Shown here: piece after piece, positions 10,738-33,297 of the stretch
Numbering within the stretch: position 1 is the stretch's first letter
How the letters are laid out: each line of letters opens with the position of its first letter
Sequence record: PP359696.1
DNA from: Escherichia phage Ge15
Length of the DNA stretch: 64,000 nucleotides
Direction: 5' to 3' (one strand)
Program-made: the position numbers and the translations under genes
Notes under the pieces: generated by a model
Database searches by the model: none
Seen by the model: the letters and a program-made list of their open reading frames with translations, nothing else
What the model was told of the DNA's origin: nothing

Positions 10738-11597
10738 AGCCTACTATTTTGACTGATATTGATGGAGTATGTTTAAGCTGGCAATCAGGCCTTCCTTATT
10801 TTGCTCAGAAATATAATCTTCCGTTAGAACATATTTTAAAAATGATCCAAGATGAGAAATTTATTTCTCCGGGTAAACTCTTTAATTGTGATGAAGAACT
10901 TGGTGTCAAGTTAATTGAAAAATATAATCGATCAGATTTTATTCGTTATTTGTCTCCATATAAAGATGCACTGTGTGTAATTAACAAATTAAAAGAAGAT
11001 TATAATTTTGTAGCTGTTACAGCATTGGGTGATTCTATTGACGCTCTGTTGAATCGTCAATTTAATTTGAATGCTCTTTTTCCTGGTGCCTTCTCAGAAG
11101 TAATGATGTGTGGTCATGATTCTTCAAAAGAAGAGTTATTCAAAAAGGCAAAAGAGAAATATAACGTAATTTGTTATATTGACGATCTCGCTCACCATTG
11201 CGATCATGCGAGTGAAATATTAAATGTTCCTGTTTATTGGATGGCGCGAGGAGAGCGTGACAATATTCCAAAAACCGCTCAGCGAGTTTATACATGGAAT
11301 GATGTAGAAAATAAGCTTTTTTCGCCGAAGGAAAATAAAGAAAGTTTTGATAATGAAAAAGCTATAAAAGATGTAATTGAGAAGATGGTTAAAAACGATT
11401 CTTTTCGTTGGAACACTACCTGGAGAACTCCTGGATTTAATCCGTATAATCCATATTATACACATCCATATAATCCATATTATACACACCCGTATCATAT
11501 GAATCCATTCCATACGTGGAGTTATACTAAGCCTGGTGATGCAGGGTATTTTAATAGATTTACTAGTGGTGATAATATTTTCCAAGGAGCATTCTAA
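10734..11597 (+). CDS. HAD-superfamily hydrolase-like protein with C-terminal Pro/Tyr-rich repeats (30.2 position)
   Basis: 287 aa; N-terminal HAD motif I ILTDIDGV; C-terminal NPYNPYYTHPYNPYYTHPY repeats; its last 366 bp lie inside the duplicated segment. Confidence 0.7.
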   Translation: MKPTILTDIDGVCLSWQSGLPYFAQKYNLPLEHILKMIQDEKFISPGKLFNCDEELGVKLIEKYNRSDFIRYLSPYKDALCVINKLKEDYNFVAVTALGDSIDALLNRQFNLNALFPGAFSEVMMCGHDSSKEELFKKAKEKYNVICYIDDLAHHCDHASEILNVPVYWMARGERDNIPKTAQRVYTWNDVENKLFSPKENKESFDNEKAIKDVIEKMVKNDSFRWNTTWRTPGFNPYNPYYTHPYNPYYTHPYHMNPFHTWSYTKPGDAGYFNRFTSGDNIFQGAF

Positions 11598-11644
11598 TGT
11601 TTGTCGTTCACACTATTTATGAAAATGAAGGTAATACTACACGT
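11232..11644. repeat. 413-bp direct repeat, copy 1 (3' part of 30.2 plus first 16 codons of 30.1)
   Basis: Identical by eye to 13617-14029; identity stops on both sides at sharp junctions. Confidence 0.9.
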
Positions 11645-11683
11645 CCGTATAATCCATATTATACACATCCATATAATCCATAA
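11597..11683 (+). pseudogene. Truncated 30.1 start fused to repeat-derived sequence
   Basis: MFVVHTIYENEGNTTR (identical to the start of ORF 13982) followed by PYNPYYTHPYNP and a stop; reading frame broken by the insertion junction at 11644/11645. Confidence 0.7.
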
Positions 11684-12108
11684 TTTAATCCGTATAATCC
11701 ATATTATACACATCCTATAAAAAATTAAAATTAACCACAATAAGCGAATTGATTAAAAATATTTATTGTTCATTATCCGTCAGTAATCATCCCGGGCAAA
11801 TGCCCGGGAATTATTCTAGGATTATTTTCTTTGTTAAAAAAGACAAACGGTATTAACTGATGTATTTACTATTTACCGCTCCCTGCAGGGGGGATTATCA
11901 GAATCCGCGGTTATTCATTATTTATATACATTCAATAAAAAAGTAACCTCATAAAAAATCCTGTACTCACAGGGTGATGCGGGATAACTGACGTAAGGAG
12001 TGCTGCAGGGATTTGATTAGACTGGCCCCCTGAATCTCCAGACAACCAATATCACTTAAATAAGTGATAGTCTTAATACTAGTTTTTAGACTAGTCATTG
12101 GAGAACAG

Positions 12109-12474
12109 ATGATTGATGTCTTAGGGCCGGAGAAACGCAGACGGCGTACCACACAGGAAAAGATCGCAATTGTTCAGCAGAGCTTTGAACCGGGGATGAC
12201 GGTCTCCCTCGTTGCCCGGCAACATGGTGTAGCAGCCAGCCAGTTATTTCTCTGGCGTAAGCAATACCAGGAAGGAAGTCTTACTGCTGTCGCCGCCGGA
12301 GAACAGGTTGTTCCTGCCTCTGAACTTGCTGCCGCCATGAAGCAGATTAAAGAACTCCAGCGCCTGCTCGGCAAGAAAACGATGGAAAATGAACTCCTCA
12401 AAGAAGCCGTTGAATATGGACGGGCAAAAAAGTGGATAGCGCACGCGCCCTTATTGCCCGGGGATGGGGAGTAA
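12109..12474 (+). CDS. insC: IS2 OrfA (InsC) transposase DNA-binding subunit
   Basis: 121 aa [56 protein letters not shown]...; A6G slippery motif near the 3' end. Confidence 0.9.
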
Positions 12475-12480
12475 GCTTAG

Positions 12481-13143
12481 TCAGCCGTTGTCTCCGGGTG
12501 TGCCAAACGTGTTTACCGGATCATGCGCCAGAATGCGCTGTTGCTTGAGCGAAAACCTGCTGTACCGCCATCGAAACGGGCACATACAGGCAGAGTGGCC
12601 GTGAAAGAAAGCAATCAGCGATGGTGCTCTGACGGGTTCGAGTTCTGCTGTGATAACGGAGAGAGACTGCGTGTCACGTTCGCGCTGGACTGCTGTGATC
12701 GTGAGGCACTGCACTGGGCGGTCACTACCGGCGGCTTCAACAGTGAAACAGTACAGGACGTCATGCTGGGAGCGGTGGAACGCCGCTTCGGCAACGATCT
12801 TCCGTCGTCTCCAGTGGAGTGGCTGACGGATAATGGTTCATGCTACCGGGCTAATGAAACACGCCAGTTCGCCCGGATGTTGGGACTTGAACCGAAGAAC
12901 ACGGCGGTGCGGAGTCCGGAGAGTAACGGAATAGCAGAGAGCTTCGTGAAAACGATAAAGCGTGACTACATCAGTATCATGCCCAAACCAGACGGGTTAA
13001 CGGCAGCAAAGAACCTTGCAGAGGCGTTCGAGCATTATAACGAATGGCATCCGCATAGTGCGCTGGGTTATCGCTCGCCACGGGAATATCTGCGGCAGCG
13101 GGCTTGTAATGGGTTAAGTGATAACAGATGTCTGGAAATATAG
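12481..13143 (+). pseudogene. insD: IS2 OrfB (InsD) catalytic region, N-terminally truncated and out of the frameshift frame
   Basis: Open frame contains ...[41 protein letters not shown]...[12 protein letters not shown]; opens only after a TAG at 12478-12480 and is in the same phase as orfA instead of -1. Confidence 0.8.
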
Positions 13144-13616
13144 GGGCAAATCCAATAAACAATTGGAATTTACTTCCATTGATCTGTTTACTCAGTGGTT
13201 GTCACTTTTATCGAGAAAGGTTTGCAGAACGCGGGTTTTTTTATAAGGTTCCTGATGTACTGAGGGATTATTTATCAGCTATACCGCTGGAAATAAATGA
13301 AAAGGCACGATACAAACCCGGCATCGCTAACTATCACAATATCATCACATGTGGTTTTTCAACGTTGTTACCCTATATAAGGCACGGCACCATGACAAAT
13401 ACGGGTATTCGCGCCGATAACAACTTCACCTGCAGTTTCATCAATAATTACCTGGTCTGCAATCTGAATATTTTTCTCTTTAACATTAAGCTTCAGATAG
13501 TTTTTCAGTTCCTGTGACAGAAGGTTGGGAATAAGCGGTTGACGCTTCCACCAGTGCGGAATAGCGGGTGGGTTTGTCGCGCTGAGGTTCGCGTCCAGTA
13601 AAAAAGGCAATAAGTC

Positions 13617-14029
13617 GTTTATTGGATGGCGCGAGGAGAGCGTGACAATATTCCAAAAACCGCTCAGCGAGTTTATACATGGAATGATGTAGAAAATAAG
13701 CTTTTTTCGCCGAAGGAAAATAAAGAAAGTTTTGATAATGAAAAAGCTATAAAAGATGTAATTGAGAAGATGGTTAAAAACGATTCTTTTCGTTGGAACA
13801 CTACCTGGAGAACTCCTGGATTTAATCCGTATAATCCATATTATACACATCCATATAATCCATATTATACACACCCGTATCATATGAATCCATTCCATAC
13901 GTGGAGTTATACTAAGCCTGGTGATGCAGGGTATTTTAATAGATTTACTAGTGGTGATAATATTTTCCAAGGAGCATTCTAATGTTTGTCGTTCACACTA
14001 TTTATGAAAATGAAGGTAATACTACACGT
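13617..14029. repeat. 413-bp direct repeat, copy 2
   Basis: Identical by eye to 11232-11644. Confidence 0.9.
13626..13982 (+). pseudogene. 5'-truncated duplicate of the 30.2 3' region
   Basis: Encodes the same 118 C-terminal residues as ORF 10734-11597 (MARGERDNIPKTAQRVYTW...); lacks the HAD N-terminal domain and its own expression signals. Confidence 0.75.
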
Positions 14030-14251
14030 GATTACGGTCACGTAAATCAATTTTTTAGATGCAATCCAGAATTCCGAGCTCAAAAAGACGAACGAATTTT
14101 TAAAAAATGTGTAGAGCAAGGTTTCATTTACGTCAAGCACTGGATGCAAGGAAATAAAGTTAGAACTACATATCATAAGTCTTTGCCTGAGCTTAATGAT
14201 GAATTGATTTATAATAGAGCTGTAAACCAAACTTTGAAGGATGAGCAATGA
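13982..14251 (+). CDS. Hypothetical protein (30.1 position)
   Basis: 89-aa ORF; start overlaps the stop of the upstream frame (TAATG). Confidence 0.6.
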   Translation: MFVVHTIYENEGNTTRDYGHVNQFFRCNPEFRAQKDERIFKKCVEQGFIYVKHWMQGNKVRTTYHKSLPELNDELIYNRAVNQTLKDEQ

Positions 14252-15945: not shown

Positions 15946-18042
15946 ATGATGGAACTCATTACAGAATTATTTGACGAAGATACTACTCTTCCGATTACAA
16001 ACTTAAATCCAAAGAAGAAAATACCACAAATTTTTTCAGTTCATGTTGATGACGCAATTGAACAACCAGGCTTTCGTTTATGTACCTATACATCTGGAGG
16101 TGATACTAATCGCGATTTAAAGATGGGCGATAAAATGATGCATATTGTTCCTTTTACATTAACTGCTAAAGGTTCAATTGCTAAATTAAAAGGTCTCGGT
16201 CCAAGCCCAATTAATTACATCAATTCAGTTTTTACTGTTGCGATGCAGACGATGCGTCAGTATAAAATTGATGCCTGTATGCTTCGTATTCTTAAGTCTA
16301 AAACTGCTGGTCAAGCTCGTCAAATTCAACTTATTGCTGATAGACTTATCCGCAGTCGTTCAGGTGGCAGATACGTCCTTCTTAAGGAACTCTGGGATTA
16401 CGATAAAAAGTATGCATATATTCTTATACATCGCAAAAATGTATCACTAGAAGACATTCCAGGAGTTCCAGAAATTAGCACCGAGCTCTTTACTAAAGTT
16501 GAATCAAAGGTTGGTGATGTTTATATCAATAAAGATACTGGAGCTCAAGTAACTAAAAATGAGGCAATTGCTGCATCTATTGCGCAAGAAAACGATAAAC
16601 GTTCTGACCAAGCTGTAATCGTTAAAGTTAAAATTTCCCGTAGAGCAATTGCACAAAGTCAATCATTAGAATCTTCTAGATTTGAAAGTGAATTATTCCA
16701 AAAGTATGAATCTACCGCAGCTAATTTCAATAAACCTGCTACGGCTCCTTTAATTCCCGAAGCAGAAGAAATGAAGCTTGGAATTAATTCATTAGCTTCT
16801 AAAACTAAAGCAGCAAAAATTATTGCTGAAGGAACTGCAGATGAACTTCATTATGACTATAAATTCTTTTCAAAAAGTGAGGTTAATGAAGTTTCTGAAA
16901 AAATTAAAGATGTAATTCTTAATGCGATTAAAAATGAACCAACTACTTCAATAAAATGTTTAGAGAAATACGCAGCAGCTGTTAATCAATTATTTGAAGA
17001 ATATAAAGATAATTGGCTTGATAAACATAATAAAACCCGTAAAGGACAGCCAGATGAAGTCTGGGAAGAAATGACTAAAAATTCCTGGAACGCAGCAAAA
17101 ACTAAATTCCTCAAAAGAATGATTTACAGCTTTTCTGGAATTGGTGCAGGTCCAATGATTGATATTACTATTGCCCGTGATGGTTCTAAATATACTCCAT
17201 CACAAAAGCGTGGCATTAGAGAGTATTGCGGTTCAGGATATACTGACATCAATAATCTTCTTTTAGGACGCTACAATCCAGAACGATATGATGTAATGAG
17301 TGAAAAAGAAATTGAATCTGCTATAAATAACTTAGATTCAGCTTTTGAAAATGGTGACCGTATACCAGAAGGCATTACAGTTTATCGTGCTCAAAGCATG
17401 ACTGCTCCTATATACGAAGCACTAGTTAAAAATAAAGTGTTCTATTTCAGAAATTTTGTATCTACTTCTTTAACTCCTATCATTTTTGGACGTTTTGGAA
17501 TTACGCATACTGGTATTGGTCTTTTAGAACCAGAAGCTCGTAATGAATTGACAGTTGATAAAAATGAAGAAGGAATAACTATTAATCCAAGCGAAATAAG
17601 AGCGTATAAAGAAAATCCTGAATACGTTAAAGTTCAAATAGGATGGGCAATTGATGGAGCTCATAAAGTTAATGTTGTATATCCAGGAAGTCTCGGAATA
17701 GCAACAGAAGCTGAAGTTATTCTACCACGAGGATTGATGGTCAAAGTTAATAAAATAACTGATGCTTCTAATAATGACGGAACAACATCTAATAATACAA
17801 AACTCATTCAAGCTGAAGTTATGACTACGGAAGAACTCACCGAATCAGTCATTTATGACGGTGACCGTCTAATGGAAACTGGTGAAGTAGTTGCAATGAC
17901 AGGTGATATTGAAATAGAAGACAGAGTTGACTTTGCATCATTTGTTTCATCAAATGTTAAACAAAAAGTAGAATCATCTCTTGGAATTATTGCGTCTTGC
18001 ATAGATATTACAAACATGCCTTACAAGTTCGTTCAAGGATAA
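15946..18042 (+). CDS. alt: Alt-type mono-ADP-ribosyltransferase, packaged in the head (paralog 1)
   Basis: 698 aa; N-terminal MELITE|LF capsid-targeting/gp21-cleavage-type sequence; C-terminal R (VYRAQ), STS (FVSTSL) and ExE (EAEVILPRG) motifs. Confidence 0.85.
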   Translation: MMELITELFDEDTTLPITNLNPKKKIPQIFSVHVDDAIEQPGFRLCTYTSGGDTNRDLKMGDKMMHIVPFTLTAKGSIAKLKGLGPSPINYINSVFTVAMQTMRQYKIDACMLRILKSKTAGQARQIQLIADRLIRSRSGGRYVLLKELWDYDKKYAYILIHRKNVSLEDIPGVPEISTELFTKVESKVGDVYINKDTGAQVTKNEAIAASIAQENDKRSDQAVIVKVKISRRAIAQSQSLESSRFESELFQKYESTAANFNKPATAPLIPEAEEMKLGINSLASKTKAAKIIAEGTADELHYDYKFFSKSEVNEVSEKIKDVILNAIKNEPTTSIKCLEKYAAAVNQLFEEYKDNWLDKHNKTRKGQPDEVWEEMTKNSWNAAKTKFLKRMIYSFSGIGAGPMIDITIARDGSKYTPSQKRGIREYCGSGYTDINNLLLGRYNPERYDVMSEKEIESAINNLDSAFENGDRIPEGITVYRAQSMTAPIYEALVKNKVFYFRNFVSTSLTPIIFGRFGITHTGIGLLEPEARNELTVDKNEEGITINPSEIRAYKENPEYVKVQIGWAIDGAHKVNVVYPGSLGIATEAEVILPRGLMVKVNKITDASNNDGTTSNNTKLIQAEVMTTEELTESVIYDGDRLMETGEVVAMTGDIEIEDRVDFASFVSSNVKQKVESSLGIIASCIDITNMPYKFVQG

Positions 18043-18045
18043 ATC

Positions 18046-20103
18046 ATGGAACTTATTACAGAATTATTTGACGGCGCTTCGGCGCCGGTTGTTAACTTAA
18101 ATCCTAAGCATAAAATACCTCAAATTTTTGCTATTCAAACCGGTGAAGAAAGCGTGCTTCCTGGATTTAGATTTTGTACATACACCTCTGGCGGTGATAC
18201 AAATAAAAACGTTAAGCCAGGCGATAAAATGATGCATATCGTAATGATAGGTGTTAATGAGAAACTATCATTAGTTAAACTTAAAAACTTGGGTGGAAAT
18301 CCAATTGGTGTCATTAATGCGGTTTTTGATACTGCTCTTCAAACAATGAAACAGTATAAAATTGACGCATGCCTATTCCGCGTACTAAAAAGTAAAACAA
18401 ATGGTGCAGCTCGTCAAATGCAAGTTATTGCTGACCGTTTAGTACGTACTAAAGGAGCAGGTCGATATGTTCTTTTAAAGGAAATCTGGGATTACGATAA
18501 AAAGTATGCATATATTATGGTTTACCGTAAAAATGCCAATTTAGAAGACATTCCAGGTGTACCTCCTATTTCAACTGAGTTATTCACAAAAGTTGAATCA
18601 AAGGTTGGTGATGTTTATGTAGATGTTAAAACAGGTAATGCTGTTCCTAAAGCTGTTGCTGTTGCTGCTTCTATTGCTTTAGAAAATGATAAGCGCACGG
18701 ATCAAGCTGTTATTCAGAAAACTAAAATTAGTCGTCGATTGGCAGCACAAGCTCAATATTCTACTGTCGATGCTTCGCTTCAGGGTGATAGCTTCGCTGC
18801 CAAGAAATATCAAGAGTTTGAATCTAAAGTTCCGGTATATAAAGCAGAAGGACCAATGAACTCTGGTGTTATTCAGATTGGTTCAAACTTCAGCAAAGGA
18901 GCTATCGGTGGTATGAGAAGTGCTTCTCGTTTTAAATCTAACGATTATGAACTAGAAAGCTTCCGAAATCATATTGCATTGGCTCATGCACGTTTACGTG
19001 ATCCGTCTATCAGACTGCAGAGCGATATAACACATCAAGGTTCTCAAGAATATTTAAAGAATAAAGAATTTTTTGATTATAAAACCGATAAAATTTTGAG
19101 CGATCTCGCTGACATTAATATTTCTAATAGCTTTGATGTTATTAAGAAAATTATCAATGATTTAGTTAAAGGTTCTAAAGCCACGCCAGACGAAAAGGTA
19201 GCTATTATTCAATTTGTTATGAATGGCATTTATAAATTGATTAATGAATCTGCTGCTCAGGCATATGAATACGCAAGCACCGAAGTAACTCCAAAAGGAT
19301 TAACTCAGGCTGAGTCTGATGTAATAGAAGATTATTGTGCAGATTCATATGTTGAAATGAACTCGTTCCTCTTGGGTAAACCAGATTCTACCCGTGAAGA
19401 ATACATGGAACGAGCTATTAAACACATCGAGACAATGGATTCTGCATTCGCTAAAGGTTCAGTTCTTCCTCCAGGAACTACGCTTTATCGTGGACAAGAA
19501 GTTACTTTTAAAACTTTACGTCATAATATTGAAAATAAAATGTTCTATTTCAAGAACTTCGTATCCACATCGCTTAAACCAAATATCTTCGGTGAGCATG
19601 GTAAAAACTATATGGCTCTAGATGATTCCGGCGCAGTATTTTCTGGCGAAGGAGAAGGTTCAGTTGATGCTGAAGATTTAATGCATATGGGTAGTCACTC
19701 TGCTTATGCGAATGAAGACGCTGAAACTAGCGTAGGTATGGTAATTAAAGGGGCTGAGCGAATCAAAGTTATCGTTCCAGGTCATTTATCAGGATTTCCA
19801 TCAGAAGCTGAAGTTATTTTACCGCGTGGAATTTTGCTGAAGATTAATAAAGTGAGCACGTACATGATGAAAGAAACTGCTTATAATAAGTATCTAATCG
19901 AAGGCACAATCGTTCCTCCTTCTGAACAATTAGAAGAATCGGTATATGATGGCGATCATCTAATGGAAACTGGTGAAGTTCGTCCAATGGCTGGGTTTAA
20001 TCAATTCCTTGTAGAAGAATCAAAAGAAGAGGAAAACGAAGTTTCTCAAATCTTGGCTTCTTTGGTTAACATCAACGGAATGTCTAAAAAGTTCAAGATG
20101 TAG
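18046..20103 (+). CDS. Alt-like mono-ADP-ribosyltransferase (paralog 2)
   Basis: 685 aa; same N-terminal MELITELFD and conserved first ~230 aa; divergent middle; retains R (LYRGQ), STS, ExE (EAEVILPRG). Confidence 0.8.
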   Translation: MELITELFDGASAPVVNLNPKHKIPQIFAIQTGEESVLPGFRFCTYTSGGDTNKNVKPGDKMMHIVMIGVNEKLSLVKLKNLGGNPIGVINAVFDTALQTMKQYKIDACLFRVLKSKTNGAARQMQVIADRLVRTKGAGRYVLLKEIWDYDKKYAYIMVYRKNANLEDIPGVPPISTELFTKVESKVGDVYVDVKTGNAVPKAVAVAASIALENDKRTDQAVIQKTKISRRLAAQAQYSTVDASLQGDSFAAKKYQEFESKVPVYKAEGPMNSGVIQIGSNFSKGAIGGMRSASRFKSNDYELESFRNHIALAHARLRDPSIRLQSDITHQGSQEYLKNKEFFDYKTDKILSDLADINISNSFDVIKKIINDLVKGSKATPDEKVAIIQFVMNGIYKLINESAAQAYEYASTEVTPKGLTQAESDVIEDYCADSYVEMNSFLLGKPDSTREEYMERAIKHIETMDSAFAKGSVLPPGTTLYRGQEVTFKTLRHNIENKMFYFKNFVSTSLKPNIFGEHGKNYMALDDSGAVFSGEGEGSVDAEDLMHMGSHSAYANEDAETSVGMVIKGAERIKVIVPGHLSGFPSEAEVILPRGILLKINKVSTYMMKETAYNKYLIEGTIVPPSEQLEESVYDGDHLMETGEVRPMAGFNQFLVEESKEEENEVSQILASLVNINGMSKKFKM

Positions 20104-20155
20104 TTTACAAGTCCCTCGTGTTGTGTTACAATAGTTTTACTGACATAACATGAGG
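20103..20155 (+). promoter_or_regulatory. Second copy of the GTTTAC + SD-sequestering hairpin cassette
   Basis: Near-identical to 1700-1752 (GTTTACAAGTCCCTCGTGTTGTGTTACA...CTGACATAACATGAGG); precedes ORF 20164. Confidence 0.55.
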
Positions 20156-20163
20156 AACACAAA

Positions 20164-31878: not shown

Positions 31879-33297
31879 ATGGCTTTTACAGTTGATATAA
31901 CTCCTAAAACACCGACAGGGGTTATTGATGAAACTAAGCAGTTTACTGCTACACCCAGTGGTGAAACTGGAGGCGGAACTATTACATATGCTTGGACTGT
32001 AGATAATGTTCCACAAGATGGAGCTGAAGCAACTTTTGATTATGTATTAAAAGGACCTGCTGGACAAAAGACTATTAAAGTAGTTGCAACAAATACACTT
32101 TCTGAAGGAGGCCCGGAAACGGCTGAAGCGACAACAACTATCACAGTTCAAAATAAGACACAAACGACTACCTTAGCTGTAACTCCTGCTAGTCCTGCGG
32201 CTGGAGTGATTGGAACAGCCGTTCAATTTACCGCTGCCTTAGATTCACAGCCGCCAGGTGCATCTGCTACGTATCAATGGCACGTTGACGGTTCTCCTGT
32301 AAGCGAAGCAACTGACGCTACATTCAATTACACTCCTGACACAAGCGGAGTTAAAACAATTAAGTGTGTAGCTCAAGTAACCGCGACAGATTATGATACA
32401 AAGGAAGTTACTTCCAATGAAGTGTCACTGACTGTTAATAAAAAGACGCAGACAACTACATTAGCCGTAACTCCTGATAGTCCTTCAGCTGGAGTAATTG
32501 GAACCCCAGTTCAATTTACTGCTGCCTTGGTTTCTCAACCTGTTGGAGCGTCTGCTACATATAAATGGTATGTAGATGATTCACAAGTTGGTGGAGAAAC
32601 TAACTCTACATTTAACTATACTCCAACTACAAGTGGAGTAAAAAGAATTAAATGCGTAGCGCAAGTAACGGCAGAAAATTACAATGAAAAGGAAGTTACT
32701 TCTAATGAAGTATCATTGACAGTTAATAAGAAGACAATGAATCCACAAGTTACATTGACTCCTCCTTCTATTAACGTTCAGCAAGATGCTTCGGCTACAT
32801 TTACGGCTAATGTCACTGATGCTCCAGAAGAAGCACAAATCGAATATTCATGGAAGAAAGATTCTTCTCCTGTAGAAGAATCAACTAATGTATACACCGT
32901 TGATACATCATCTATCGGAAGTCAAACTATTGAAGTTACTGCCACTGTTACTGTCACTGATTATGATAGCAAAACTATCACAGCAGAAGGTCAAGTTCAG
33001 GTAACTGATAAAGTTGCTCCAGAACCAGAAGGTGAATTGCCTTATGTTCATCCTCTTCCACATCGTACTTCAGCTTATATCTGGTGCGGTTGGTGGGTTA
33101 TGGATGAAATCCAAAAAATGACAGAAGAAGGTAAAGATTGGAAAACTGAAGATCCAGATAGTAAATACTACCTGCATCGTTACACCCTTCAGAAGATGAT
33201 GAAAGACTATCCAGAAGTTGATGTTCAAGAATCACGTAATGGATACATCATTCATAAAACTGCTTTAGAAACTGGTATCATCTATACCTATCCATAA
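31879..33297 (+). CDS. hoc: Hoc head outer capsid protein, 4 Ig-like domains + capsid-binding C-terminal domain
   Basis: 472 aa; tandem Ig-like repeats; C-terminal domain ...PYVHPLPHRTSAYIWCGWWVMDEIQKM...; about 96 aa longer than the ~376 aa I recall for T4 Hoc. Confidence 0.9.
   Translation: MAFTVDITPKTPTGVIDETKQFTATPSGETGGGTITYAWTVDNVPQDGAEATFDYVLKGPAGQKTIKVVATNTLSEGGPETAEATTTITVQNKTQTTTLAVTPASPAAGVIGTAVQFTAALDSQPPGASATYQWHVDGSPVSEATDATFNYTPDTSGVKTIKCVAQVTATDYDTKEVTSNEVSLTVNKKTQTTTLAVTPDSPSAGVIGTPVQFTAALVSQPVGASATYKWYVDDSQVGGETNSTFNYTPTTSGVKRIKCVAQVTAENYNEKEVTSNEVSLTVNKKTMNPQVTLTPPSINVQQDASATFTANVTDAPEEAQIEYSWKKDSSPVEESTNVYTVDTSSIGSQTIEVTATVTVTDYDSKTITAEGQVQVTDKVAPEPEGELPYVHPLPHRTSAYIWCGWWVMDEIQKMTEEGKDWKTEDPDSKYYLHRYTLQKMMKDYPEVDVQESRNGYIIHKTALETGIIYTYP
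32152..32724 (+). repeat. Tandem duplication of an Ig-like domain coding unit inside hoc (2 x ~285 bp)
   Basis: Units 32152-32436 and 32437-32724 are roughly 80 percent identical at protein level (NKTQTTTLAVTPASPAAGVIG... vs NKKTQTTTLAVTPDSPSAGVIG...). Confidence 0.85.

Follow-up and report, generated by a model that had tools for sequence, protein, structure and literature searches.

Composition of the Locus

The window, i.e., the whole stretch of 64,000 nucleotides from Escherichia phage Ge15 (PP359696.1) that was analyzed, is from a T4-like phage (Tequatrovirus). Hundreds of T-even genomes match it at 90–99% identity, and its overall GC content is 36.4%. Ahead of an intact DUF3045 gene and the DNA ligase gene, it contains a mosaic of 1,972 bp (11645–13616) flanked by two copies of a 413-bp phage segment, in which an IS2 element is surrounded by pieces of bacterial chromosome together with two phage scraps (Table 1). 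The interval 12100–13200 is the sole strongly GC-rich island near this mosaic. All of the components are known sequence, namely K-12 yaiX/yaiP, ygeO/orgA, intB, yqiG, and IS2. The homology at all eight junctions (8/8) is 0–1 nt, which argues against microhomology-guided template switching.

Table 1. Features of the mosaic and the adjoining phage genes, in window positions.
Feature	Position	Strand	Remarks
Phage duplication, copy A, 413 bp	11232–11644	+	100% identical to 13617–14029
Two scraps (38 nt, 33 nt) of the phage 24-nt repeat region	11645–11715	+	Equivalent to 13829–13866 and 13822–13854
yqiG (usher pseudogene) from codon 2, 65 bp	11716–11780	+
Last 6 nt of intB and downstream DNA, 237 bp	11781–12017	+	100% identity
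IS2, both ends present, 194-bp internal deletion	12018–13154	+	BLAST
IS2 nt 1–484	12018–12501		BLAST
IS2 nt 678–1331	12501–13154		BLAST
ygeO/orgA pseudogene fragment, 5'-truncated, 230 bp	13155–13384	+	99.6% identity
yaiX codons 2–78, 232 bp	13385–13616	−	100% identity to K-12
Phage duplication, copy B, 413 bp	13617–14029	+	Intact DUF3045 and ligase genes after it
DUF3045 (30.1-like) gene, intact copy	13982–14251
DNA ligase gene, 487 aa	14248–15711

Copy A of the duplication spans the 3' part of a 287-aa 30.2-like gene, for which no Pfam match was obtained, and reaches 47 nt into the DUF3045 gene. Within the 30.2-like gene, a 24-nt unit is tandemly repeated 2.3 times at 11440–11495 (and 13825–13880), encoding NPYNPYYTHPYNPYYTHPY. 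This is the only local tandem repeat, it lies inside the duplication, and both phage scraps of the mosaic are its sub-copies. When 11645–14029 (2,385 bp) is taken out, the remainder aligns with phage sutha over 4,216 bp without a gap (98.9% identity), and every phage gene is kept intact in one copy. Two open reading frames are products of the duplication: a truncated DUF3045 start fused to the repeat scraps at 11598–11683 (MFVVHTIYENEGNTTRPYNPYYTHPYNP, followed by a stop), and, at 13626–13982, a copy of the 30.2-like gene that has lost its 5' part (118 aa). Both would enter an automated annotation as spurious genes. Two chimeric ORFs of the mosaic do not occur in the gene index, and a scan for promoters and terminators gave counts not above those in shuffled sequence.

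The IS2 element lacks nt 485–678 (194 bp), an out-of-frame loss that breaks the OrfAB transposase, and what remains of it is 100% identical to K-12 IS2. A residual 206-aa ORF carries rve domains; this truncated OrfB occurs at many unrelated disrupted IS2 copies and is uninformative on the source. The four K-12 IS2 copies that were compared are identical, such that the donor of the IS2 body is not distinguishable. The deletion junction was also searched for in E. coli genomes, a search in which the two halves get joined across full-length IS2, so that full-length copies and any pre-existing deleted copy look alike.

Several repeated elements were observed elsewhere in the window. Just downstream of the ligase gene, adjacent plus-strand ORFs at 15946–18042 (698 aa) and 18046–20103 (685 aa) share nucleotide blocks of 71–80% identity at a constant spacing of 2.09 kb (repeat families D3, D5, D6, and D8). 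This suggests tandemly arranged paralogs, which may be Alt-like. Two tandem 288-nt units with 76% identity occupy 32143–32718, a region annotated with hoc and other capsid genes in related phages, and probably represent repeats of an Ig-like domain. A 54-nt element present at 1700–1753 and 20103–20156 (96% identity, 18.4 kb apart), ending in CATAACATGAGGA, looks like a conserved intergenic cassette comprising a putative promoter and ribosome-binding site.

Host Fragments and Their Source in E. coli K-12

The 462 bp at the right end of the mosaic (13155–13616) had been described beforehand as a fragment of a single host gene on the minus strand. As supposed, the segment is E. coli chromosome (99.6–100% identity, E = 2e-114 to 2e-117), which is composed, however, of two pieces and not one: the junction 13384/13385 divides ygeO/orgA DNA from yaiX/yaiP DNA. 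A comparison with E. coli K-12, proposed in the preliminary description, showed that both halves match the K-12 chromosome at 99.6–100%. A single contiguous host fragment is ruled out, since the 462 bp are together in no genome among 5,426 complete E. coli genomes; at least 80% of the segment was found in one place in 0 of the 5,426. The limits assigned to it were accurate, with the right end of IS2 at 13154 and the phage junction at 13616/13617, from which point on the sequence is that of the phage. Its GC content had been put near 50%, whereas 41.3% was measured (37.4% in the first half and 45.3% in the second).

The minus-strand frame was also read correctly, its stop lying at 13368–13370 and its translation ending exactly in KNIQIADQVIIDETAGEVVIGANTRICHGAVPYIG and the stop; in full, it reads DLLPFLLDANLSATNPPAIPHWWKRQPLIPNLLSQELKNYLKLNVKEKNIQIADQVIIDETAGEVVIGANTRICHGAVPYIG, then the stop. 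Its assignment to an acyltransferase holds for 13385–13616, but the last four codons and the stop (PYIG and stop) are antisense ygeO. Similarly, an IS2-interrupted acyltransferase pseudogene of K-12, which the preliminary description had brought up, was identified as yaiX for 13385–13616, but 13155–13384 is ygeO/orgA on the other strand. The yaiX piece corresponds to NC_000913.3 382637–382869 (233/233 nt identical), annotated as yaiX gene fragment 1; yaiX is a pseudogene for a putative acyltransferase, which IS2A splits in K-12, and fragment 1 is its N-terminal part. In the search of E. coli genomes, the 100% match of this half extended over 13384–13616 and fell on the boundary of yaiP and an acetyltransferase. 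It is located in K-12 47–279 bp right of IS2A and overlaps the 3' end of yaiP, of which the last 43 codons and stop occupy 13486–13616. The Hexapep profile (PF00132) gave E = 0.13 and 12.4 bits on the 77-codon fragment, below the cut-off of 27 bits, and E = 5e-18 on the uninterrupted yaiX orthologue of strain E2865, a hexapeptide-repeat protein. No working acyltransferase gene is encoded by the piece, which excludes the ATG and supplies 77 codons only, followed by antisense ygeO and the stop.

The ygeO/orgA piece exhibited a profile match to Pfam OrgA_MxiK (PF09482, E = 8e-9). It starts at the truncated 5' edge of ygeO/orgA, the native right flank of IS2H in K-12, and extends for 230 bp, and the join from IS2 to ygeO is exactly that of K-12. 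This junction was detected in 363 of the 5,426 E. coli genomes, those among the matches listed being K-12 laboratory derivatives, and was absent in O157:H7, BL21, and ATCC 25922, which have orgA sequence or an IS2. Since the junction is confined to few genomes and the listed ones are K-12 derivatives, the donor is assigned to a K-12-lineage laboratory strain. A single private base was found at 13262 (G vs. A in K-12). Over 13155–13384, the best-matching E. coli genomes all reached 99.6% identity and none 100%. The G at 13262 could be a sequencing error, a variant of the propagation strain, or a mutation that occurred after capture.

On the left side of IS2, the yqiG piece flanks IS2I on the left in K-12 and ends 3 bp short of that element, and the intB piece likewise flanks IS2K on the left, ending 9 bp short of it. 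Hence all four host pieces (4/4) are located within 280 bp of different K-12 IS2 copies, namely IS2I/yqiG, IS2K/intB, IS2H/ygeO, and IS2A/yaiX, and each single-copy piece lies on its correct IS2 side in its correct orientation. The preliminary description had proposed that IS2, if its flank is host chromosome, was acquired together with it. This presumes one contiguous host segment, and the insert instead holds the flanks of four IS2 copies; nor is the yaiX piece a flank of the present IS2, as 230 bp of ygeO stand between them. Three of the four host pieces are 237, 230, and 232 bp in size, and longer runs occur only in the multi-copy IS2 (484 and 654 bp). None of the host fragments in the mosaic can be functional.

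None of 50,697 phage records, 72,556 plasmid records, or 5,426 E. coli genomes showed the mosaic structure, and its junctions were missing from IMG/VR viral contigs, JGI metagenome contigs, and GTDB representatives. The same arrangement was found in none of 658 related phage records. An origin from a plasmid or the F-factor was ruled out, as the plasmid records match IS2 only. No supF or other tRNA was found in the insert, and a literature search for IS2 or host sequences carried by T4-like phages yielded nothing specific.

Origin of the Mosaic

The mosaic is probably host-read contamination that was scaffolded around a collapsed IS2 and retained in an untrimmed overlap of contig ends; we infer that the pieces were joined by software rather than in a cell. 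The phage would have been grown on a K-12-lineage strain, a small quantity of whose DNA was sequenced alongside, and only the multi-copy IS2 would have attained an assembling depth. Single reads of approximately 230–240 nt, or mates, from different IS2 flanks may then have been ordered by read-pair links around the collapsed IS2, with left flanks set to its left and right flanks to its right, and unresolved scraps of the phage 24-nt tandem repeat may have been placed there as well. This junk would have landed between the untrimmed ends of the phage contig, which share 413 bp, and the gap symbols would have been lost.

Such an artefact is favored because the flanks of four IS2 copies surround one IS2 on the right side and in the right orientation, which is expected of a collapsed repeat. 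This flank pattern cannot be produced by chance, and no cellular reaction known to us would bring together, around a single IS, flanks that belong to four unlinked copies. The artefact is further favored because the pieces of 230–237 bp look read-sized and because junctions with 0–1 nt of homology fit end-to-end concatenation. The 194-bp "deletion" of IS2 might just as well reflect a scaffold gap that was closed. In its behavior, the duplication resembles an overlap of contig ends, since the sequence is colinear with sutha and free of gaps once the 2,385 bp are excised; that the duplication holds the only local tandem repeat, which the phage scraps copy, also speaks for assembly. The same applies to the uniqueness of the structure among all records searched, and to the private base 13262, which is expected of low-coverage sequence. 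The donor is the K-12 laboratory lineage, i.e., the propagation host, and the insert is centered on a multi-copy repeat, as fits an artefact.

The artefact reading is weakened by several features of the insert. It contains no Ns, though common assemblers fill scaffold gaps with Ns, and the 413-bp overlap is unlike the k-mer overlap usual for de Bruijn assemblers. Placement of the IS2 scaffold between phage ends needs phage-to-IS2 read-pair links. Other multi-copy K-12 sequences (IS1, IS5, and rRNA operons) are absent, IS2 being the only one present, and the 65-bp yqiG piece and the phage scraps of 33 and 38 nt are far below read length. An intact set of phage genes is equally expected of a viable real recombinant.

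A real mosaic formed in infected K-12 cells, where phage ends were joined without homology and host fragments were captured as filler, is rather unlikely. The ends after 11644 and before 11232 would in this case lie on sister molecules of a replicating concatemer, and the exact 413-bp direct duplication is what unequal end joining would produce. It is equally the product of Campbell-type integration, in that a small circle with the 413-bp phage piece, integrated by a single crossover, would lead to the same arrangement. The phage ligase or a T4-type topoisomerase II acting by subunit exchange would be the candidate enzymes, the latter kind of joining having reportedly been described by Ikeda in 1986. 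The junction homology of 0–1 nt fits joining by either enzyme, but eight independent non-homologous joins would be needed in one viable genome, E. coli is without an end-joining pathway, and in vivo blunt joining by a T4-type ligase is not established. The bias for IS2 flanks might arise from pairing of dispersed IS2 copies on fragments of host DNA, with branch nucleases cutting where homology ends. The left-flank ends at 3 and 9 bp from IS2 and the one native right junction fit such cuts at homology boundaries, but no tether is available by which the flanks of four unlinked IS2 copies could reach the right order and orientation, and the near-equal sizes of 230–237 bp are unexplained. The short templated copies of the nearby repeat resemble filler DNA at repair joints, and the lack of any phage gene loss would leave the phage viable. 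Against these points, cytosine-containing host DNA is rapidly degraded by T-even phages, and the 658 related phage records hold no instance of such a structure.

Genuine transposition of IS2 into the phage, perhaps in a sub-population and with the host flanks as secondary noise, is very improbable. Both terminal repeats of IS2 are present, but transposition is excluded for the assembled element because there is no target-site duplication (5 bp) and no direct IS2–phage junction, both IS2 ends abutting E. coli DNA. Moreover, the right junction is the pre-existing IS2H–ygeO junction of K-12, and the transposase frame is broken by the 194-bp deletion. The preliminary description had likewise suggested that IS2 was not gained by transposition, and this view is borne out by the host DNA on both sides, the missing duplication, and the internal deletion. 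An arrangement that pre-existed in the chromosome or a plasmid of the propagation strain, and was taken up or co-assembled whole, is scarcely credible: the pieces are 99.6–100% identical to K-12 and laboratory strains do get rearranged by IS elements, but the internal junctions occur in 0 of 5,426 complete E. coli genomes and 0 of 72,556 plasmid records, four unlinked loci (yaiX at ~0.38 Mb and yqiG at ~3.19 Mb in NC_000913.3, ygeO, and intB) would have to be fused within 2 kb, and two phage-derived scraps sit inside the array.

If the mosaic is an artefact of assembly, approximately 2.4 kb of the record is spurious and should be removed, including an IS2, pieces of four E. coli genes, and a duplication that the phage does not have. 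Such sequence would mislead annotation, surveys of host-gene transfer, and safety screens of therapeutic phages that flag transposases. If it was instead formed in a cell, it would show at first hand that a virulent T-even phage recently captured host DNA, the patchwork from one infection having been fixed with a 413-bp duplication. Its eight junctions would then be a mechanistic footprint with breakpoints at IS2 homology boundaries, giving a rare snapshot of host-DNA uptake by strictly lytic T-even phages.

Relation to Known Systems

The yaiX piece is 100% identical to K-12 yaiX (b4579) and is on the same IS2 side in the same orientation. It differs in that codons 2–78 only are present, without the start codon, the nearest edge being 47 bp from the IS2A site, and in that it is joined here to ygeO and phage DNA and not to IS2. 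K-12 ygeO/orgA, which IS2H truncates, is left over from the ETT2 type III secretion island, and the present piece shares with it the native IS2–ygeO junction and the next 230 bp; unlike the K-12 locus, it stops after these 230 bp, is fused to yaiX, and differs in one base (13262).

In the T4 insertion/substitution system, the integrant is a plasmid with a cloned phage fragment that is integrated by a single crossover. The present structure is similar to such integrants in having approximately 2 kb of foreign DNA flanked by a direct phage duplication (413 bp, 100% identical). In contrast to them, it has no vector backbone, replication origin, or supF tRNA, and chromosomal scraps are found in their place.

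A likeness also exists to scaffolding errors at collapsed repeats and to untrimmed end overlaps of circularly permuted phage genomes. The present insert departs from these in the lack of Ns and the unusual length of the overlap. It agrees with them in that the flanks of several copies lie around one repeat copy, the pieces are of about read length, the duplication is located at what would be the meeting point of contig ends, and the foreign DNA is that of the probable propagation host.
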